Shown piece after piece: positions 15,902-63,112 of a stretch of 64,000 nt of DNA; the stretch's first letter is position 1, and every line of letters starts with the position of its first letter. The notes beneath the pieces are model-generated. The model ran no database searches. It was given only the letters and a program-made list of their open reading frames with translations, and had not been told where the DNA came from. The stretch covers positions 171,146 to 235,145 of the forward strand of contig CAYNWA010000002.1 in the NCBI GenBank assembly GCA_964400795.1, read 5' to 3'. The DNA is from an uncultured Smithella sp. (lineage in GTDB: Bacteria > Desulfobacterota > Syntrophia > Syntrophales > Smithellaceae). Made by a program: the position numbers and the translations under genes.

Positions 15902-17317
15902 ATGGACGAACAACGAAAAGAAATGTTGAAGCAGTTACCGAAAATTGATGAAGTTCTGCTAATTCTAGAGAAGCAAAACATTTACGACCTGGCGCCGAAA
16001 GACGTCGTCAAGGAAACCTGCCGTAAGATTGTACAGGATCTACGCGATAAAATCGTCAACACCAAGAAGAAACTGCCTGCGGAATTCAGTCCCGATGCTA
16101 AAACAGTAGCCAAAGAGGTGGAAAAATCAATCAAAGGATTGTACCGTTACAGCCTGCGCCGTGTCGTCAATGCTACCGGTGTTATCCTGCACACCAACCT
16201 GGGACGCGCGCCGCTTTGTCCCGAAGCACTGGAAAGAATTATCGAAGTGGGCAAGGCCTACTCCAATCTGGAATTTGATTTAACCAAAGGCGAACGCGGC
16301 CAGCGCTACGACCATGTCAGCTCGCTGCTTTGCGCCCTAACAGGAGCCGAAGACGCACTGATCGTCAACAACAACGCCGCAGCGGTTTTACTGGTGCTAA
16401 ATACGCTGGCCCAGAAAAAAGAAGCCATCGTATCCCGCGGCGAGCTTATTGAAATCGGCGGTGAATTCCGCATTCCGGAAATCATGCAGAAAAGCGCGAC
16501 AAAACTTCGCGAAGTGGGAACGACCAACCGCACGCGCCTGAGCGATTACGAAAAAGCCGTCAACGACAAAACCGGTCTGATTATGAAAGTCCACACCAGC
16601 AATTACCGCATTGTGGGATTCACCGAAGAAGCAAGCATTGAATCGCTGGTTGAACTGGGAAAAAACAGGGGCATTCCGATCATGGATGATCTGGGCAGCG
16701 GTTGCCTGATCGACCTTGACCTCTATGGTCTGCAGCACGAACCGACGATTCGCGAAAGACTGGCCACCGGCGTTGATGTGGTCACCTTCAGTGGTGACAA
16801 ACTGCTGGGCGGCCCACAGGCTGGCATCATTGTCGGTAAAAAGGACGTTCTTGCAAAAATCAAAAAGAATCCCTTGAACCGCGCCCTGCGTATCGACAAA
16901 TTCACACTGGCCGCTCTGGAAGCCACACTGATGCTCTACTTGAATACCGCTACGGCACCCAAGAAATTAAGAGCGCTGAAAGCGTTAACCGAACCTGTTG
17001 AGGATGTTAGAAAACGCGCTGAGAAATTAATTGCGAAACTACAGAAAGAAAACTTCGCCTCGCTGAAATTTTCCATCCGCGAAGACTTCGCGGCAGCCGG
17101 AGGTGGTTCTTTGCCTACGCAGCAGATTCCGACTGTTTTGGTCGCTGTCCAAAACAAAAAAATGCCGGCGACAAAGATGGAAGAAAAACTGCGCCAGCTC
17201 GACGTGCCCATCATCGCCCGTGTGGATAAAGACGAAATCCTTTTCGATTTACGCACAGTCTCTGAGGATGAATTTGCTTTCATCGTCGAAGGTTTGAAAC
17301 AGATAACGGCTAATTAA
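15902..17317 (+). CDS. selA: L-seryl-tRNA(Sec) selenium transferase
   Basis: 471 aa, SelA-specific PLP-lysine region FSGDKLLGGPQAGIIVG, typical N-terminal LP.IDEVL segment. Confidence 0.9.
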   Translation: MDEQRKEMLKQLPKIDEVLLILEKQNIYDLAPKDVVKETCRKIVQDLRDKIVNTKKKLPAEFSPDAKTVAKEVEKSIKGLYRYSLRRVVNATGVILHTNLGRAPLCPEALERIIEVGKAYSNLEFDLTKGERGQRYDHVSSLLCALTGAEDALIVNNNAAAVLLVLNTLAQKKEAIVSRGELIEIGGEFRIPEIMQKSATKLREVGTTNRTRLSDYEKAVNDKTGLIMKVHTSNYRIVGFTEEASIESLVELGKNRGIPIMDDLGSGCLIDLDLYGLQHEPTIRERLATGVDVVTFSGDKLLGGPQAGIIVGKKDVLAKIKKNPLNRALRIDKFTLAALEATLMLYLNTATAPKKLRALKALTEPVEDVRKRAEKLIAKLQKENFASLKFSIREDFAAAGGGSLPTQQIPTVLVAVQNKKMPATKMEEKLRQLDVPIIARVDKDEILFDLRTVSEDEFAFIVEGLKQITAN

Positions 17318-17484: not shown

Positions 17485-17533
17485 AACTTAAGTCATGCGT
17501 TTCATCTGTAAAATTCAATTTCAGGAGGGCGGC

Positions 17534-18670
17534 ATGAAAAATTTTAAAAGCGCAAAAATAAATAGTTTAGTTTTTCAATTCCTTCTAACATTCGTTTTAA
17601 TAATAATCACAGCACAAACAGGCAATTGTTTTGCCATGCGATCAAAAGGAACAAAAGACAGTATAGACAATTTAAGCTTTTCCCATGATGGGAAGAAAGT
17701 AATATTTGACCGCTGCCGTGAAGGCTGCCAGATACAGGTCTATAATCTGGAGACAGGCGAACTGGCCGCCTATCAATCGCCCGCCAACGAACGTTGGACA
17801 ATGGCAAAGCAGTCTTATGATGGCAAAAAGATAGTATTATCCGTCATGCCTGTTATTGACGGACATGTTGATCTCTCCGAAATGCAGATCGCCGTCATGG
17901 ATGCCGACGGGAAAAATTACAAAAAGATAACCAACGGCCCCGGCGCCAAGCTCTATCCCACCTTTTCGCATAACGGGAAAAAGGTTCTCTATGCCCGTGC
18001 GGCGTACATGAGAAAGAGCGGCAAAACACCCGCCGCGCAGTACGATGCATGGGAAGTTGATTTAACAACCGGCACGCAGAGGCAACTTACCTTTTTCAAA
18101 TACTTTTATATGGGATATCTTACGTATTTGCCTGATGACGAACGATTTATCTATTATGGTGAAATGCCTGAGGCATTTCCCGGTCTTGATCTGCCGAAAG
18201 GTGATCCCAGAAAAGCGCAGGAAATGATCAGGCAGGAACAGATGAAGAGGAAGATTGGCATAGCGGGCATATTAGTCATGAAGAGAGGCGAAGACCTGCC
18301 GCAGGAACAATACCATTTTGGCAAGGGCTTTAACGCCGAACGGCCGCTTTTGAGCAAGGACGGCTCCAAGCTGATCGTTGAAAAAAGTGTATCAGCGGGT
18401 GAATTTTATCTCTATTCAGCGGATGGGAATCATCGGCTCGTGGGAGAAGGCGGTTCTGTTAATGCCGCGGCTATATCGCCGGATGGAGAACTGTTGGCGA
18501 TGATAGCTTTCAGTTTACATGTTTTTACAGTTCGGGACGGCAAACGAAAAGTAATATTATATTTACCATCTGCACCTAAGACAATTGAAAATTGGGAGGT
18601 AGCATACCGAGGAAGTGAAAATCTATACAGGATGATACCAGCAAAACCATTGCGTATACTCAACAGATGA
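17534..18670 (+). CDS. Secreted TolB-like beta-propeller (PD40/WD40-like repeat) protein
   Basis: SD aggaggg before the ATG at 17534. Signal peptide. Repeated PD40-type signatures SHDGKKVIF, SYDGKKIVL, SHNGKKVLY, SKDGSKLIV, SPDGELLA. Confidence 0.75.
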   Translation: MKNFKSAKINSLVFQFLLTFVLIIITAQTGNCFAMRSKGTKDSIDNLSFSHDGKKVIFDRCREGCQIQVYNLETGELAAYQSPANERWTMAKQSYDGKKIVLSVMPVIDGHVDLSEMQIAVMDADGKNYKKITNGPGAKLYPTFSHNGKKVLYARAAYMRKSGKTPAAQYDAWEVDLTTGTQRQLTFFKYFYMGYLTYLPDDERFIYYGEMPEAFPGLDLPKGDPRKAQEMIRQEQMKRKIGIAGILVMKRGEDLPQEQYHFGKGFNAERPLLSKDGSKLIVEKSVSAGEFYLYSADGNHRLVGEGGSVNAAAISPDGELLAMIAFSLHVFTVRDGKRKVILYLPSAPKTIENWEVAYRGSENLYRMIPAKPLRILNR

Positions 18671-55558: not shown

Positions 55559-57487
55559 TTATATTTCATCACCCGCTTTATATCCCTCGTGAATGGCTTC
55601 CAGAATCCGGCGCGGACTCTTTGCATCGCCAACAACCCTGTAGGGAATAGCCAGTTCCTTCAGCGTATCCTCCAATGCGTTATCTGATCTGGCGCCCATC
55701 GCGGTTACAATCAAGGCTGCTTTTTCCTCTTTTTCTTCACCCATCTGTTGATAACGCACGATATCATCTTCGATAGCCAGTACTTTAGCGCCGAACAGCA
55801 GTCTGCAGCCACTCTCCTTGATCCGTTTGTGCAGCCAATAACCATGAGCCGTGAGTTTTCCCACCGGCGGAAATGCCTGCATCTCCAGAACAGTAACCGC
55901 AATGCCTTTGGCGAGTAGATAATCCGCGGTTTCCATTCCCACATATCCGGCGCCCAGAATCACAACCGGACTTTTGAGTTCAATCTTGCCCGTAAGCACA
56001 TCGCGCGCATCTACTACTATTTTTGAATCCAGTCCGGAAACCGGAGCCGTCACCGGATAAGCGCCACAGGCCAGTATGACCGCATCAGGCCTTTCTTGTT
56101 TTATCGCATTTGCGTCAACTGTATGTTCATACTTTATATTAACGGATGCTTTACCCAAAGAACGCAAAGACCACGAAACCCAATCCATGAAGCTCTTTTT
56201 GTGCGGCGGACGGCTGGCTGATAAAAGTTGTCCCCCTGCCTGTTCCTGTTTTTCAAAAACGTCCACCTTGTGCCCTCTGGCGACCACCGCCATGGCAGCG
56301 GAAAGACCCGCCGGGCCTGCTCCAACAATCCAGACATGCTTTGGAGGATCAGCCTTGGGCGCCACTCCTTTATATTCGCGTCCGCACTCCGGATTGAAAC
56401 TGCACGTTGCCGATTTCAGCTCGAAACTCAATCGTTCGATGCAACCCTGATTGCAGGCAACGCACCAGCGAATATCATCACGCTTTCCTTCACGGGCTTT
56501 ATTGATAAAATCAGGATCGGTCAGATGCTGACGTCCGAAACTGATCAGGTCGGCATCACCTCTGGCGATGGCCTGATCGGCCAGCTCCGGATCATTGATA
56601 CGACCGACACCGATAACGGGAACATTGACCACTTCTTTTACAGCGCGGGCACGGAACAAATTAAATCCGGGATCGGTATCCATGGAAGCAATGGAAAGAC
56701 CACCGGGCGTGGAATAAACTCCCACGGAACAATGAATGGCATCAACCCCGGCCTCAACCAGTTTCGGCGCAAATTTCAGCATGAAAGACAAATCATAACC
56801 GCCGCGCACCAGTTCATCAGCCGATATACGAATCCATACAGGGAAATCACGCCCCACAACTTTTCGTACAGCTGCAATTATTTCCAGAACAAAGCGCATG
56901 CGGTTTTCATCGCTTCCGCCATATTGATCTTCGCGCTTGTTGGAAAAAGGAGAAAGAAACTGATTCAATAAATAACCATGAGCGCCGTGAAGCTCCACGG
57001 CATCAAAACCCGCCTGACGTGCCCGTCCGGCCGCCCGGGCGAAGGCGTCTATCACTTCGACAATACGTTCCTGAGACATCGCTTCGCAAGGCTGACCCAA
57101 GATAACACTGGGAATGGCCGAAGGCGCCTCCGGCATGGCACCGGCCGCCGCCTCAAACGTTTCACGTCCGGCATGATGCAGTTGCAGCGCAGCCTTGGCT
57201 CCATAGCGATGCAAGGCCTCCGGAATGCGCGCCAGTCCCGGAATAAATTCATCGCTCCACACACCAATTTCACTGGGAAAGCCCTTGCCGCGCGGTACAA
57301 CAGCGCATACTTCCGTAATAATCAGACCGGTTCCTCCCTGCGCCCGGCGTGCCAAATACGCCAGCAGCCGATCGCTTATCGTACCGTCGCTATTACCGTA
57401 ACCGGTACCCATGGGCGGCATCACCGCCCGGTTTTTCAAGGTCATTCCATTAATAGTGATGGGTGAAAAAAGATGCGGGAAATTCAT
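55559..57487 (-). CDS. OYE-family FMN oxidoreductase fused to an FAD/NAD(P) domain (2,4-dienoyl-CoA reductase / NADH oxidase-like)
   Basis: N-terminal OYE TIM barrel (LFSPITINGMTLKNR..., HGAHGYLLNQFLSP), CVACNQGC Fe-S motif, Rossmann folds GAGPAGL and GAGYVG. The SD ggagga favours the ATG at 57487 over 57499. Confidence 0.85.
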   Translation of the reverse strand: MNFPHLFSPITINGMTLKNRAVMPPMGTGYGNSDGTISDRLLAYLARRAQGGTGLIITEVCAVVPRGKGFPSEIGVWSDEFIPGLARIPEALHRYGAKAALQLHHAGRETFEAAAGAMPEAPSAIPSVILGQPCEAMSQERIVEVIDAFARAAGRARQAGFDAVELHGAHGYLLNQFLSPFSNKREDQYGGSDENRMRFVLEIIAAVRKVVGRDFPVWIRISADELVRGGYDLSFMLKFAPKLVEAGVDAIHCSVGVYSTPGGLSIASMDTDPGFNLFRARAVKEVVNVPVIGVGRINDPELADQAIARGDADLISFGRQHLTDPDFINKAREGKRDDIRWCVACNQGCIERLSFELKSATCSFNPECGREYKGVAPKADPPKHVWIVGAGPAGLSAAMAVVARGHKVDVFEKQEQAGGQLLSASRPPHKKSFMDWVSWSLRSLGKASVNIKYEHTVDANAIKQERPDAVILACGAYPVTAPVSGLDSKIVVDARDVLTGKIELKSPVVILGAGYVGMETADYLLAKGIAVTVLEMQAFPPVGKLTAHGYWLHKRIKESGCRLLFGAKVLAIEDDIVRYQQMGEEKEEKAALIVTAMGARSDNALEDTLKELAIPYRVVGDAKSPRRILEAIHEGYKAGDEI

Positions 57488-57637
57488 TGATTCCTCCATT
57501 ACAAAAATAATTTAAAGACAAAATTTTGATCGACACTCAATCATATTGTCATTTAAACAATATGACTGAATAATAAAGTACCACTAAATCTTTAAAGAGT
57601 CAGTTGATTTTTTAAATCAAGATGAGATTATTTTATT

Positions 57638-58183
57638 TTATTTTATGTTGCGTTCTATTTTCTCAATCAGCGTTTGGGTTTGATCCGGCAGGAGCGCAAA
57701 CCCCATATCGTTTCTGTAAATGACATTCATTTTTTTATCGATGATCACATAGACGCGTTTGGAAAGCGGCAGCAGCCAGTGGTCGGCTTTGTACATTTTG
57801 GCGATTCTGCCTTTTTCATCCACCAGCAGGGTCATGTTTTTCAGGCCGTGCTTGGCGATAAACTTGCGGTGCGATTCGGCCGAGTCTCTCGACAGGCCGA
57901 GGATTTTGATATTTTTGGCGTTGTATTTTTCGATGTTTTGTTGAAACTCAACAAACTGGCGTATTCAAAGCTTGGTGTCGTCTTTGGGATAAAAGGCGAG
58001 CACGACGGCACGATACTTTTTGACGGCATCGCTGAGTTTCCAAGTTTTCCCGTCCTGATCGGCAAGTGTAAAATCGGGAGCTATCTGACCGGCGACGGAA
58101 GTTGTCGTTCTGACATCCGTTCCCGCGCAGGCAAATAGTACGAAAAGAAAAAACAAAATAAATAAAGACGAAATGCGTCGCAT
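57638..58183 (-). CDS. Predicted selenocysteine-containing BCP/peroxiredoxin-like lipoprotein (in-frame TGA at 57965-57967)
   Basis: ORFs 57965..58183 and 57638..57835 are in the same frame, and the 129 nt between them is open. The joined sequence reads ...VVLAFYPKDDTKL-U-IRQFVEFQQNIEKYNAKNIKILGLSRDS..., matching the PxxxTxxC active site with U in place of C. Lipobox LFAC; SD aggagg. Confidence 0.75.
57935..57956 (-). promoter_or_regulatory. Candidate bacterial SECIS stem-loop
   Basis: Starts 9-10 nt after the UGA: GUUUGUUG AGUUU CAACAAAAC (7 bp plus a bulge, G/U in the apical loop). Confidence 0.5.
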
Positions 58184-58256: not shown

Positions 58257-58982
58257 TTAATCGTCGAACGCCATCTTGGTTTTCCAGACTTCCCAGACCT
58301 TGCCCACCAGATCGGGGCCGGGTTTGAGCGTCGGCTTGCCGGGTTTCCAACCGGAGGGCGTGGCTTCGGCGCCTTTGGTTTTGCGCACGTGCTGGAAGGC
58401 CTGAATCTGACGGATGCTTTCCATGACGTTGCGTCCGACCGGCGGTGTCAGCACTTCAAAGCCCTGAATGATGCCGTCCGGATCGATGATGAACCGGCCG
58501 CGGGCTTCCACGCCGGCATCCTGAAGATAAACGCCAAAGACGTCTCCGACCTTGCCGCCGCCGTCGGAGAGCATGGGGAAGGGGATGCCGCCTTTGACCA
58601 TTTTGGAAAGTTCATGGTCATCCCACATTTTGTGGACAAAGACGCTGTCCACACTCATGGATAAAACTTCAACGCCGAGTTTTTTGAATTCGGGATATTT
58701 CTCGCCGACCGACGAGATTTCGGTTGCTCAGACGAAGGTGAAGTCGCCCGGATAAAAACACAGGACAACCCATTTCCCCAGATAATCGGAGAGTTTAACA
58801 TTGATGAATTTCCCCTTGTGATACGCGGGCGCCGTGAAGTCGGGCGCTTTCTTTCCTACAGTAACCATGCTTTTGACCTCCTTGACAGGTACGGGTTGAG
58901 CGGTTTCTTTCTTCACGTCGGGTTTTTCGCCGACCGGTCCGCCGGTGGGTCTGGCGCAGCCGGCCTTGATTTCTTCAGCCAT
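58257..58982 (-). CDS. Predicted selenocysteine-containing peroxiredoxin (AhpC/Prx type; in-frame TGA at 58728-58730)
   Basis: ORFs 58728..58982 and 58257..58658 are in the same frame, with 69 open nt between them. The joined sequence reads ...[39 protein letters not shown]..., i.e. FTFVCPTE with U in place of C. An alternative start at 58868 also has a strong SD. Confidence 0.8.
58700..58717 (-). promoter_or_regulatory. Candidate bacterial SECIS stem-loop
   Basis: Starts 11 nt after the UGA: UCUCGUC GGUC GGCGAGA (7 pairs including one G-U, GGUC tetraloop). Confidence 0.5.
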
Positions 58983-59019
58983 AGACGATGCCCTCCTTTG
59001 TTTTATTTTTGTCGCTTAT

Positions 59020-59334
59020 TTATTTTTTTGATTTCTTCATTTTCGCGATTTCTTCCTCCACTTCTTCGGAGCCTTCGGCATAAAATTTTTCTTCATCCGG
59101 CGCCAGCTCGTGCAGCAGTCTTAAAAACTCCCCGGCGTGAACGCGTTCCTCGTCGGCAATGTCCCTGAGGACCTCGATGGCCAGTTTGTTGTCGGTTGAC
59201 TCCGCGAGCTGCATGTAAAGTTGGATGGCTTCATATTCCGCTGCCACCATAAAGCGAATGGCTCTGATCAGTTCTTCTTTGGTCAGTTTCCTGTCCTTCT
59301 TCAACCCTGAAAAAGGTGTTCCAAATTCCGGCAT
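59020..59334 (-). CDS. Small ferritin-like (EncFtn-type half-ferritin / rubrerythrin-family) protein
   Basis: 104 aa. Two-helix pattern AAEYEAIQLY ... DIADEERVHAGEF, with Glu ~33/35, Glu 62/63 and His 66, similar to the E..E..H ligand spacing of encapsulated ferritins. SD aaggagg. Confidence 0.55.
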   Translation of the reverse strand: MPEFGTPFSGLKKDRKLTKEELIRAIRFMVAAEYEAIQLYMQLAESTDNKLAIEVLRDIADEERVHAGEFLRLLHELAPDEEKFYAEGSEEVEEEIAKMKKSKK

Positions 59335-59374: not shown

Positions 59375-59611
59375 TCATTCATTCTTTTGCTCTATGGCTT
59401 TTTGCAGGTCGGAAAGAAACGCGTCCTTATCCAGAGAAAAACGGGCAGCGACATCTCCAATAGTGTCGAAAAGGCAGGAGCAGCACAAACATACTCCCGC
59501 CTTTTCGTCATATTTTTTGATCGCTGTTTCTGTTGCCGGCCAGTTGGAAACAACATCCAAAAGGATGGTATCCTCCGCGATGGCCTTATTATCTTCAGAT
59601 TTTAAGGACAT
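59375..59611 (-). CDS. DUF1858-type small redox-disulfide domain protein
   Basis: 78 aa. ...WPATETAIKKYDEKAGVCLCCSCLFDTIGDVAARFSLDKDAFLSDL fits the DUF1858 pattern (Y..G..C..C...T...A...D..L). The ATG abuts the stop of the upstream gene. Confidence 0.6.
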   Translation of the reverse strand: MSLKSEDNKAIAEDTILLDVVSNWPATETAIKKYDEKAGVCLCCSCLFDTIGDVAARFSLDKDAFLSDLQKAIEQKNE

Positions 59612-61312
59612 TTATTTCTCCCTCGGATACGGCCAGGCCATAATGCCGCCTTCCATGACCTTGACGTTTTTCCAGCCGTTTCCTTCCAGTGCCAGCGCCG
59701 CCTCATAACCGCGTAGGGATATCTTGCAGTATAGAATAATTTCGCGGTTCTTGTCTTCGGGCAGTTCCTTGAGGCGCTTACGGATCGCGCCGAGCGGTAT
59801 CAGCGTCTCACCGATGCCTAAACGCATCTCTTCGAATTCCTCCGGTCCGCGTGTATCTATCAGGAAAGGTTTCTCTCCGGCCCGTATTTTATCATAAACC
59901 TCTTTACAACTGATACCTTTCATTCTGCCTTTCATTTTGTTCTGCATAATATGTGCTGTGGCGATGAAGTGATCGATGGCTAGGGAAAAGGGCGGCGCAT
60001 AGGGAAGATCGGCGTTGACAAGATCCTCCACGGTCATCTTGCCCTGGATGGCCATGGCCCACTGGGCAATCTGTTTGGCGACATTGCCGGGGCCGATACA
60101 CTGCGCGCCAAGGACGCGGCCGGTTTTGGCATCAGCGGTTAATTTAGTTACCAGAAGCTTGCCTTCCATGAATCCCGGTTTGTCGGGACTGGTGTTGATG
60201 ACCGTGATGATGTCGGAATAACCCAGACGCTTTGCCGCTGTTTCCGAAAGACCCGTGGAACCGGCTCCGTAATCAAAAACCTTGCAGATGCCGGTCTGAA
60301 TTGTTCCCGGAAAGGTCACGCAATTTGTCGAGGCGGCGTTTTCACCTGCCACGCGTCCCTGAAGATTGGCCAAGTCGCCATAGGGCGCGTGGACTTTTTT
60401 GCCGGTGATGCGGTTGAGGGTTTCCACGCAGTCGCCCACGGCGTAAATGTCCGGGTCGGAGGTCTGCATGTATTCATTGACCTCGATACCGCCCAGGTCT
60501 CCGATTTTCAAACCGGCTTCTTTGGCCAGTGTGATGTTGGGACGGACACCGATGGCCACAACGGCCAGTTCGCAGGGAAGCTCCGTGCCGTTTTGCAGTT
60601 TGACCGCTGTGAGTTTTCCGTTTTCACCCAGGAAAGCGGCTATGCCGTTTTCGGTAATGACGTTGGCGCCCTTGCTCCGCACATGGTTTTCCACCAGCTT
60701 GGCCAGTTCCCAGTCCAAAAACGTCAGCAGTTGAGGAAGCAGTTCAATGACGGTGATTTCAATACCCGCCAGTTGCAGCGCTTCGCAGGTTTCTATACCG
60801 ATGAGTCCGCCGCCGATGACCACGGCCTTTTTGATTTTACCTTCATCGCGGACGTTACGCAGAAAATCGGCGTCCTTCATGGATTGTAATGTGGTAATGC
60901 CCTGGAGATCCGTGCCCGGAACCGGCGGCATGCGCGGAACCGCACCGGTCGCGATAACAAGCTTGTCGTACGTTAACGTGTCGGTTTCTCCCGAAACGAC
61001 ATTTTTAAAAGACACCGAATGATTTTTTGTGTCAATGTTGGTGACCTCGGTATTGACGCGGGCGTCAATGTCCTTGGCGTTAAGATAAAACATCGGATTG
61101 CGCACGATCCCTGCAGGTGTGCAAAGAAGCGCATTGCGGTCGTTAAAAAAACCTCCGACATAATACGGATAGCCGCAGGACGCCATGGAGAGGTCGGCTT
61201 CCTTCTGGATAATGATGACTTCCGCGTCGTTGTCGATGCGTCGGGCTTTTGCCGCCGCCTTGGGACCGGCGGCCGAACCGCCGATGACGATGATTCTTTT
61301 TCTATTACCCAT
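59612..61312 (-). CDS. CoA-disulfide reductase / NADH-dependent persulfide reductase-like flavoprotein with a C-terminal rhodanese domain
   Basis: IIVIGGSAAG FAD fold, single redox Cys in SMASCGYPYY, NAD fold VIGGGLIG, C-terminal rhodanese with active-site loop YCKISLRG. SD aaggag 6 nt before the ATG at 61312 (ORF-track start 61351 is TTG). Confidence 0.85.
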   Translation of the reverse strand: MGNRKRIIVIGGSAAGPKAAAKARRIDNDAEVIIIQKEADLSMASCGYPYYVGGFFNDRNALLCTPAGIVRNPMFYLNAKDIDARVNTEVTNIDTKNHSVSFKNVVSGETDTLTYDKLVIATGAVPRMPPVPGTDLQGITTLQSMKDADFLRNVRDEGKIKKAVVIGGGLIGIETCEALQLAGIEITVIELLPQLLTFLDWELAKLVENHVRSKGANVITENGIAAFLGENGKLTAVKLQNGTELPCELAVVAIGVRPNITLAKEAGLKIGDLGGIEVNEYMQTSDPDIYAVGDCVETLNRITGKKVHAPYGDLANLQGRVAGENAASTNCVTFPGTIQTGICKVFDYGAGSTGLSETAAKRLGYSDIITVINTSPDKPGFMEGKLLVTKLTADAKTGRVLGAQCIGPGNVAKQIAQWAMAIQGKMTVEDLVNADLPYAPPFSLAIDHFIATAHIMQNKMKGRMKGISCKEVYDKIRAGEKPFLIDTRGPEEFEEMRLGIGETLIPLGAIRKRLKELPEDKNREIILYCKISLRGYEAALALEGNGWKNVKVMEGGIMAWPYPREK

Positions 61313-61347
61313 AAAATTCTCCTTAAAAACATATTGATATGTGTCGC

Positions 61348-62106
61348 TCAATCTTTACTGATCTCTTCTGTCTCTTTCTCTCCATTCACTGGTAGGTTCT
61401 GATCTTTTTCAACTTCATCCCCGAGGAAAGGCTCAATCGGTTCAAAATCGGCAATCCAAAGAGGATGACGGTGCCGCGCATAATCCAAACGAACTTTTCC
61501 CGTAAATATTCCGCGGATCATAGGCCAGTTAGGTCGCAAAGCGATCGCCGCCATGTGCGCCAGGAAAATCAGAAAAAACAAAACGAAAAAAATATTATGA
61601 ATCCAGCTCGCCCACAACAAGATGGCATGGGACATATCGGGCGCATAAATATTCTTGTAGGTTTTGACCAGGCCGGACAGAATAAGCATCAAGATGATAA
61701 AAGCCATCCCTGCATAAGCGAGACGTTGTTCCGGCAGATATTTTTTCATGGGTGGCTCCTTTCCGAAACCCAATAAGCTTCTAATAACGGCAATGGATTC
61801 GGAAAAATCATGCTTCTGGGGAAGCAATCCTTTTTCACCGCGCAAACCATGATAGAAAACATGAAACAATGCGGTCGCTGTAAAAATCAGCGCTGCTCCG
61901 TAATGAAGATAGAGTGACGTAATAAAATCGGCAGACCAGCCAAGCCCTGGAAAATGAACGATGTAGTAGCGTTTGCCCACCGGTAGCTCAAATATTCCGG
62001 TGAGAAGAAGAACAAGGCCGGAAAGGGCAATCGCCCAATGTTCGATTAATTCCAAAGCGCTGTGGCGGACAATCAGATTTTTTTCAAATAATATTTTTTC
62101 AGTCAT
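61348..62106 (-). CDS. Membrane b-type cytochrome (FdnI/HyaC-like, Ni_hydr_CYTB family)
   Basis: Four predicted TM helices with conserved His (IEHWAIA, HYGAALIF...FH, WIHN...AHM). Start at the MTEKILF ATG with SD-like gggggaa. Follows the Fe-S subunit gene after 4 nt. Confidence 0.75.
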   Translation of the reverse strand: MTEKILFEKNLIVRHSALELIEHWAIALSGLVLLLTGIFELPVGKRYYIVHFPGLGWSADFITSLYLHYGAALIFTATALFHVFYHGLRGEKGLLPQKHDFSESIAVIRSLLGFGKEPPMKKYLPEQRLAYAGMAFIILMLILSGLVKTYKNIYAPDMSHAILLWASWIHNIFFVLFFLIFLAHMAAIALRPNWPMIRGIFTGKVRLDYARHRHPLWIADFEPIEPFLGDEVEKDQNLPVNGEKETEEISKD

Positions 62107-62110
62107 GGTC

Positions 62111-63112
62111 CTATTCCCCCTTTCCCGCTTCATCTCTTCTCTTGAACAACCAATTAAACGCACCAGCCACACCAGCGGCAGCGATTCCCAATACAGGAGC
62201 AGCCAGTACTGTCCTGGCTAAGCAATCCGTTCCTTCCATTCTTCTCTGAACATCAACTTTCATATCGGGCTGACCGGGTTTCTTTATCATGGTTTTATTG
62301 ATTTCTTCAAACGGAACCGGTGAAACGTAAATCGTCGCAGTGCCTCCATTTTGAGTTTTGCCGTAGATGAAGCCATTCATTTTTCTCGCACGGGATTCGG
62401 CTATTTTTTCGATAGCGTTCCGGGAACCGATCAACAATGCTTCCCGGGGACAGGCTTCGATACAACCGGGCAATTTCCCGTCAGCCAATCTTTCCACACA
62501 TAAATCGCACTTGTACATCACGCCATTACCCATCAGCCCCGGCAACACATTCAGGTAGATACCGACACCGGATTGACGTTGCGGAATTTCCCAGGGACAA
62601 ACGTCGCGACATTTCGCGCCACCGAAACAAAGATCCTGATCAATGACCACGGCTCCGTTTTTGTTCTTATGATTGGCGGAAAACGGGCAGATCGTCGCGC
62701 AAGCGGGATTATCGCAATGCATGCAGCGACGCGGCACAAAGACCGTTTTTTGCTGACTGCCTAAATTAACTTCGGCTTTGTGCACGTAAATAAAATTATA
62801 AGGGGTAAGGCGATTGAATACATCCTGCTTTTTGGACCAGTCTTCAATGGTTTTGCGTGGCCATGGTTCGGGAATGGGTTCCGTTACCGGTGGTATTTTA
62901 TCTTTGTTGATTGTTTTACATGCGCTGACGCATGCTGGTATATTTCTGCCGGTGCAACCATCGCAGAGGCTTAAATCAATGAGCGTTGATAATTTTTTGT
63001 CGCTTTTGGCCAATGCTTTTTTCGGCAAACCAAAACCGGAAAGAGCTGCTGCTCCGGCTGTCAGCTTTAAAAAAGATCGGCGACCGATATGAAAGTTATG
63101 TTCAGTGCTCAT
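62111..63112 (-). CDS. Tat-exported 4x[4Fe-4S] ferredoxin-type subunit with a C-terminal membrane anchor (HybA/FdnH-like)
   Basis: Twin-arginine signal HIGRRSFLKLTAGAAALSG...ALA. Cys clusters CMHCDNPACATICP, CFGGAKCRDVCP, CDLCVERL...CIEACP. C-terminal TM helix VLAAPVLGIAAAGVAGAF. Confidence 0.85.
   Translation of the reverse strand: MSTEHNFHIGRRSFLKLTAGAAALSGFGLPKKALAKSDKKLSTLIDLSLCDGCTGRNIPACVSACKTINKDKIPPVTEPIPEPWPRKTIEDWSKKQDVFNRLTPYNFIYVHKAEVNLGSQQKTVFVPRRCMHCDNPACATICPFSANHKNKNGAVVIDQDLCFGGAKCRDVCPWEIPQRQSGVGIYLNVLPGLMGNGVMYKCDLCVERLADGKLPGCIEACPREALLIGSRNAIEKIAESRARKMNGFIYGKTQNGGTATIYVSPVPFEEINKTMIKKPGQPDMKVDVQRRMEGTDCLARTVLAAPVLGIAAAGVAGAFNWLFKRRDEAGKGE

Follow-up and report, generated by a model that had tools for sequence, protein, structure and literature searches.

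A minus-strand gene in a 64,000-nucleotide stretch of contig CAYNWA010000002.1 (assembly GCA_964400795.1, uncultured Smithella sp., Smithellaceae; hereafter the window, always at its full 64-kb length) is interrupted by an in-frame TGA codon, and mechanical calling of open reading frames (ORFs) renders it as two fragments. Almost certainly, 58257..58982 is one intact gene, prxU, which encodes a peroxiredoxin (Prx) of the Prx1/AhpC structural type with selenocysteine (Sec) as the peroxidatic residue, the UGA being recoded by way of a selenocysteine insertion sequence (SECIS). The gene is orthologous to a selenoprotein that is known, curated and fairly common, and the catalogue already covers this family together with its UGA and SECIS. 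What is added here is comparative and modest: proof by covariation of the PrxU SECIS, an invariant N-terminal Cys motif and a conserved internal ribosome-binding site. Beyond the catalogue lie only the N-terminal Cys motif, the internal start and a neighbouring gene that is probably a second Sec-peroxiredoxin.

One gene across an in-frame TGA

On the minus strand, a single frame holds the ORFs 58728..58982 (84 aa) and 58257..58658 (133 aa), which are separated only by the TGA (58728-58730) plus 69 nt (58659-58727) that are stop-free in frame. A preliminary description of this DNA, made from the letters alone, had joined the two ORFs into a 241-aa product, and translation of 58257-58982, in which the TGA is the sole internal stop, confirms that step. 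A Shine-Dalgarno (SD) sequence can be read upstream of the first ATG, and 68 of 78 homologues have an SD-like motif ahead of the first start.

When the stop is replaced by Cys, the joined protein matches the Pfam models AhpC-TSA (130 bits) and 1-cysPrx_C, and scores 418.3 bits, against a cutoff of 270, with the curated NCBIfam equivalog NF040737 (peroxi_PrxU), residues 7-237 covering profile positions 2-233 of 233. A tblastn search against plasmids finds the archetype, the prxU gene carried by Peptoclostridium (Eubacterium) acidaminophilum DSM 3953 on a megaplasmid of 809 kb, with 68.6% identity over residues 1-241. In the alignment to solved 2-Cys peroxiredoxins, the TGA column coincides with the peroxidatic Cys of the FTFVCPTE motif, and the active-site motif P78xxxT82xxU85 is present together with Arg161. 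The AlphaFold2 (AF2) model, with a mean predicted local distance difference test score (pLDDT) of 82, gives template modelling (TM) scores of 0.85-0.9 (normalised to the target) with typical 2-Cys Prx structures; the nearest structures are of the Prx1/AhpC type, not the Prx6 type. Both the PrxU-like identity and the replacement of the FTFVCPTE Cys by TGA, as first proposed, are thus upheld, and alignment with Cys homologues and with PrxU, which had been suggested as a check, confirms the U/C column and shows TGA at the same codon in the P. acidaminophilum gene.

Conservation of the TGA codon

A DNA scan of one genome per GTDB species yields at least 593 relatives; the best 80 loci, from 80 different species, were analysed, and all 80 carry TGA at the homologous codon. 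Among these 80, the Smithellaceae/Syntrophales sequences are the closest (85-94% amino-acid identity), and the remainder span Desulfobacterales, Desulfobulbales, Thermodesulfovibrio/Nitrospirota, Spirochaetota, Caldithrix (Calditrichota), KSB1, Cloacimonadota, Anaerolineae, Pirellulales and Chitinispirillaceae. Downstream of the TGA, in the 81 sequences made up of the window and these loci, the protein is conserved and the variation falls at third codon positions.

A protein search finds many full-length homologues of about 239 aa with 60-82% identity. Across the best 120 protein clusters, the residue given at the TGA column is W in 106, C in 8, G in one and S in one; for one W case (cluster P0010, locus L085), the DNA confirms a TGA codon. 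The Cys-type homologues (P0015, P0017, P0039, P0066 and others) are 61-66% identical, so that the in-frame UGA aligns with Cys of non-selenoprotein homologues, the Cys/Sec pairing by which a selenoprotein gene is recognised. At these numbers, Sec-Prx is not the rare family that the preliminary description took it to be.

The W or G printed at the Sec codon in public metagenome calls (107 of the 120 clusters) reflects a change to genetic code 4 or 25 made by gene callers when contigs are short. Such calls are systematic mis-annotation of selenoproteins. The expectation that standard pipelines would report two fragments or a pseudogene holds only in part, given that these callers often read through the codon and that RefSeq annotates the P. 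acidaminophilum gene as one 240-aa coding sequence (CDS) across the TGA (WP_084481301.1).

A covarying hairpin downstream of the UGA

A 7-pair hairpin with a GGUC loop follows the UGA; pairing begins at the 11th nt past this codon, and 17 nt separate the UGA from the loop. The model of the bacterial SECIS (bSECIS) specifies a loop of 3-9 nt that has G in its first two positions, a stem of 4-16 bp, a UGA-loop distance of 16-37 nt and a minimum free energy (MFE) of -7.5 kcal/mol or lower (PMC13188914). Here the loop is 4 nt and opens with GG, the stem is 7 bp and the spacing 17 nt; folded alone (28 nt), the hairpin has an energy of -9.5 kcal/mol (z = -3.1), a value that 2 of 200 shuffles attain.

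The decisive evidence comes from an alignment of 54 nt around the TGA in the 81 sequences (alignment A2), in which the stem corresponds to columns 20-26 with 31-37. The stem is paired in 99.5% of the cells, and in four of the seven pairs both partners have changed (59 cells). On none of five measures is the stem matched by any of 500 column shuffles, pairing falls to 42-69% when the 3' partner is slid by 1-3 columns, and RNAalifold finds the same seven pairs independently. The most telling pair, 24-33 (GC 45, AU 28, UA 6, CG 1), joins the synonymous third positions of a Ser and an Ala codon, for whose covariation base pairing is the only reason. Pair 21-36 joins the third positions of an Ile codon and a Glu codon (UA 57, CG 17, AU 4), where AU comes at the price of a Glu-to-Asp substitution. 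One G-C pair has become U-G through the changes A91S and A93G, both in the window and in one relative (L002). The hairpin sequence is bound by the conserved peptide I-S-A-V-A-E-K, so that variation is found mostly at paired synonymous positions. The loop has the consensus (G/A)GU(C/U), in which GU is invariant. This covariation is strong evidence that the hairpin exceeds chance and, together with the agreement with the bSECIS model, upholds the SECIS geometry proposed in the preliminary description.

Decoding of the UGA and alternative explanations

On the established bacterial Sec pathway, the ribosome would reach UGA85 and the hairpin 11 nt downstream would act as a SECIS, recruiting SelB with Sec-tRNA(Sec), such that Sec would be inserted and termination avoided. 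The recoding step rests on that pathway, and its cis elements, the UGA and the SECIS, are seen here. The window also carries selA, as noted in the preliminary description and now identified by an equivalog match (Table 1).

Several points weigh against this reading. When the hairpin is folded in contexts of 41-66 nt, the single-sequence MFE structure is a competing fold and the z values of -0.4 to -0.8 are not significant, so that single-sequence folding is weak evidence and covariation was used instead; folding, put forward earlier as a check, thus favours the hairpin in isolation and another fold in wider contexts. A whole-window Rfam scan at gathering thresholds is without a match, with no bacterial SECIS family. 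No tRNA of any kind, and hence no selC, is found in the 64-kb window by ARAGORN, and neither selB nor selD is among the large ORFs scanned there. selA stands alone: the next ORF (17495..18670, plus strand) has no NCBIfam match at E <= 1e-30 and is not selB, and there is no tRNA(Sec) gene nearby. The reading of UGA85 as Sec in this Smithella sp. is accordingly a prediction from cis elements and homologues, if a strongly supported one, and the roles of Cys9 and Cys75 and the two isoforms discussed below are drawn only from conservation.

Three other explanations of the TGA have been considered. The first, which is quite improbable, is that translation of UGA85 yields another residue in place of, or besides, Sec: the code may be reassigned (to Trp or Gly), or Cys may be inserted by a tRNA(Cys) that resembles tRNA(Sec) and has a UCA anticodon. 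Such a tRNA(Cys)-UCA occurs in some Deltaproteobacteria, the gene callers print W in 106 clusters and G in one, and the window contains no tRNA gene from which the decoding tRNA could be identified. However, of the window's 32 longest open stretches (at least 300 codons), 9 close with TGA, which is thus an ordinary stop there, and a reassigned code was rejected on this stop-codon usage. Moreover, Trp or Gly at the peroxidatic position would kill catalysis, selA is present, the SelB-type hairpin is conserved, and the archetype is called selenocysteine-containing. Within SelB-dependent decoding, Cys may possibly be inserted on occasion.

Termination at the UGA, yielding two polypeptides (an 84-aa N-terminal piece and a 133-aa piece from the ATG at 58658), is still less probable. 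This is what the mechanical ORF caller puts out, and a GenBank annotation of a metagenome-assembled genome (MAG) likewise breaks up the neighbouring Sec-type peroxiredoxin, into pieces of 72 and 108 aa. Neither piece of prxU, however, has a complete Prx active site, whereas the full-length protein fits the PrxU model end to end; in all 81 sequences the 23 codons that separate the TGA from the following ATG are kept in frame at the protein level, no other stop breaks the frame, and the covarying SECIS sits exactly there. Finally, an error in sequencing or assembly, or a nonsense mutation that recently turned a Cys peroxiredoxin into a pseudogene, would require a single base change from TGC or TGT, and Cys-type homologues do exist, but this explanation is effectively refuted, and error and pseudogene excluded, by the TGA kept in 80 independent assemblies of different species and in the finished P. 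acidaminophilum replicon, by W or G at the column in 107 clusters, by protein-level conservation past the TGA and by the covarying hairpin.

Catalysis and the invariant cysteines

In the PrxU protein, the U85 selenolate, held in the P78xxxT82xxU85/Arg161 site, would reduce hydroperoxide and be converted to selenenic acid. Thioredoxin-dependent peroxidase activity is attributed to PrxU by the family name and the literature. The C-terminal resolving Cys of the typical 2-Cys mechanism (VCP motif, inter-subunit bond) is replaced by Thr208, which is nearly invariant in the protein homologue alignment (A1); the PDB alignments bear out the earlier observation that this site reads ATP. Recycling would then have to use another thiol. 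A 1-Sec mechanism, which the preliminary description had derived from the missing VCP Cys, does not follow: the 1-Cys (‘1-Sec') class is defined by the lack of any other conserved Cys, and here two such residues, Cys9 and Cys75, occur without exception in the 81 sequences, and either could resolve.

Cys9 sits in a 38-residue N-terminal extension, within a short motif of the GCARP type for which the codon-position entropy is 0.22, 0.20 and 1.70 bits; this confinement of the entropy mainly to the third position indicates selection on the protein. The linker that follows (residues 20-35) is variable. In the AF2 model, residues 11-16 form a beta-strand (the block 11-20 has a mean pLDDT of 82), and the linker (23-37) has pLDDT below 50 and is disordered. 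The pattern suggests, as a tentative first guess, that the resolving thiol might be Cys9, carried on a motif tethered by the variable linker. The alternatives would be Cys75, located 10 residues before the Sec, or direct attack by thioredoxin (the 1-Sec scheme). If Cys9 does act in this way, an N-terminal Cys has replaced the C-terminal resolving Cys of 2-Cys Prx in the PrxU family.

A conserved candidate internal start

Codon 39 is preceded by an SD-like motif in all 82 sequences compared, and the motif is strong (AGGAG or GGAGG) in 80; for comparison, other in-frame Met codons of the same genes have an SD-like motif in 32 of 478 cases (~7%) and a strong one in 6. The start codon itself is ATG in 80 of the 82 sequences, GTG in one and ATT in one. 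The internal SD is kept as nucleotides while the encoded residues vary (KEV, QEG, EEV, KKE, TGG). The equivalent start in P. acidaminophilum gives a product of 203 aa with Sec at position 47, and purified PrxU reportedly has 203 aa with Sec47, equal to the internal-start product. This conservation suggests that prxU may also yield a 203-aa form without Cys9, beside the long form, and the conserved internal ribosome-binding site may explain PrxU sizes of both 203 aa and 240 aa.

A more speculative possibility, on the doubtful side, is a gene with two differently recycled products, the 241-aa form being resolved by Cys9 through an intramolecular or inter-subunit Se-S bond and the 203-aa form by some other route. 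If so, the ratio of the 241-aa to the 203-aa form could tune enzyme recycling. No description of such a two-form Cys9 scheme was found in the accessible literature, the original 2001 PrxU paper excluded.

Genomic neighbourhood and a second TGA-containing peroxiredoxin

prxU is located among same-strand redox and oxidative-stress genes (Table 1). Upstream of it lie a flavoprotein with a C-terminal rhodanese domain, a small protein without a family match and an EncB-family ferritin-like protein. The flavoprotein and the small protein could form a local reductant system; the order flavoprotein, small protein, prxU is kept only in the Smithellaceae relatives (L001-L008), and among the 80 loci an EncB-family protein occurs beside prxU only in L023. 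No redox partner is conserved beside prxU, with no neighbour family found in more than 9 of the 80 loci by neighbour clustering. Further out, no formate dehydrogenase alpha subunit, a frequent type of selenoprotein, lies upstream of the genes for an Fe-S protein and cytochrome b (61348..63112); the Fe-S protein there has its own leader resembling a twin-arginine translocation (Tat) signal, and the edge of the window cuts through no long ORF.

Table 1. Coordinates of prxU elements and of other features in the 64-kb window.
Feature	Position	Strand	Details
prxU, long reading frame	58257..58982	minus	241 codons + TAA stop 58257-58259; Sec at codon 85
In-frame TGA, codon 85	58728..58730	minus	peroxidatic-Cys place in P78xxxT82xxU85 motif
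bSECIS hairpin	58700..58717	minus	UCUCGUC-GGUC-GGCGAGA; 5' arm 58717-58711, loop GGUC 58710-58707, 3' arm 58706-58700
SD of first ATG (58980-58982)	58992..58998	minus	AAGGAGG, read from sequence
N-terminal motif G8-19 (GCARP type) with Cys9	58926..58961	minus	Cys9 codon 58956-58958; Cys9 in 81/81
Internal SD	58877..58883	minus	AAGGAGG, 8 nt upstream of internal ATG
Internal ATG, codon 39	58866..58868	minus	candidate start of 203-aa short form; from conservation
Cys75 codon	58758..58760	minus	VVLC75FYPGD; 81/81; Phe in solved 2-Cys Prx
Thr208 codon	58359..58361	minus	resolving-Cys site of typical 2-Cys Prx (EVCPAGW; here EATPSGW), from PDB alignments
Second peroxiredoxin, BCP/PrxQ type	57638..58183	minus	AhpC-TSA 108 bits; directly downstream of prxU
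In-frame TGA of BCP/PrxQ gene	57965-57967	minus	FYPKDDTKL-TGA-IRQFVEFQQ; peroxidatic-Cys position
BCP/PrxQ hairpin	57937-57955	minus	8 bp, GUU loop, 17 nt after UGA
EncB-family ferritin-like protein	59020..59334	minus	104 aa; NCBIfam EncB model (encapsulin cargo) 97.7 bits, cutoff 90
Small protein without family match	59375..59611	minus	78 aa
CoA-disulfide-reductase-like flavoprotein	59612..61351	minus	pyridine-nucleotide-disulfide type, CoADR/NADH-oxidase-like, with C-terminal rhodanese
OYE/NADH-oxidase-like flavoprotein	55559..57499	minus	
selA, L-seryl-tRNA(Sec) selenium transferase	15902..17317	plus	TIGR00474 equivalog 626 bits, cutoff 268, full length

Directly downstream of prxU, the gene 57638..58183 is probably a second, much rarer Sec-peroxiredoxin. 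It encodes a BCP/PrxQ-type protein with a lipoprotein-like signal (LFAC), for which no NCBIfam model scores above cutoff and close homologues are few. The Cys homologues read DDTPGCTKQAC, so that the in-frame TGA replaces the peroxidatic Cys, and the resolving Cys of BCP is also absent here. The TGA is kept in seven distinct sequences, including that of the Spirochaetes MAG in which GenBank splits the gene. The hairpin downstream of it is nucleotide-invariant in the seven sequences, synonymous sites included, whereas flanking synonymous sites vary; its MFE of -5.9 to -6.9 kcal/mol misses the -7.5 of the bSECIS model.

For annotation, both fragments of prxU should be merged into one CDS with a translation exception at 58728-58730, and the neighbouring gene probably needs a merged selenoprotein annotation as well. 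With prxU, this Smithellaceae-like syntroph is marked as a selenium user with a Sec-dependent peroxide defence.

Comparison with known systems

A Sec peroxiredoxin (PF00578, motif TxxU) is listed among the experimentally verified bacterial selenoproteins, with reference to Sohling et al. 2001 (PMC13188914, PMC9312934), and the title of that paper, as cited in PMC13188914, presents the archetype as a selenocysteine-containing protein. The peroxiredoxin of C. sticklandii has Sec84 in 240 aa (PMC3091704), and Desulfobacterium autotrophicum and Desulfotignum phosphitoxidans are also on record as carrying prxU (PMC4046663).

P. acidaminophilum PrxU agrees with the protein described here in the TGA at the same codon, the FTFV-U-ATE motif, the N-terminal GCARP motif, the Cys at -10, the lack of a C-terminal resolving Cys, the internal SD with its ATG and the SECIS hairpin, which there reads UUUCAGC-AGUU-GCUGAAA. 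The differences lie in the host (Clostridia as opposed to a Smithellaceae/Syntrophales-like member of Desulfobacterota), in the hairpin, where A91S and A93G with the resulting U-G pair are found here, and in the neighbours, which are Fur and Mrp/NBP35 in P. acidaminophilum, compared with the CoA-disulfide reductase/rhodanese, the ferritin-like protein and the probable second Sec-peroxiredoxin here.

The typical 2-Cys Prx (human Prx2 1QMV, Salmonella AhpC 1N8J, Arabidopsis 2-Cys PrxA 5ZTE) share with this protein the fold, at 37-46% identity, the PxxxTxxC motif, the conserved Arg and the C-terminal 1-cysPrx_C region. In contrast to them, it has Sec for the peroxidatic Cys, ATP for VCP, a 38-residue N-terminal extension that includes a Cys, and Cys75 in place of Phe.

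The GGUC loop is also the loop sequence of the E. coli fdhF hairpin. The prxU hairpin resembles the fdhF-type SECIS and the bSECIS consensus (Zhang and Gladyshev, in PMC13188914) in lying within the coding sequence right after the UGA, and differs from the fdhF type in that its stem is a simple 7-bp helix without a bulged U.

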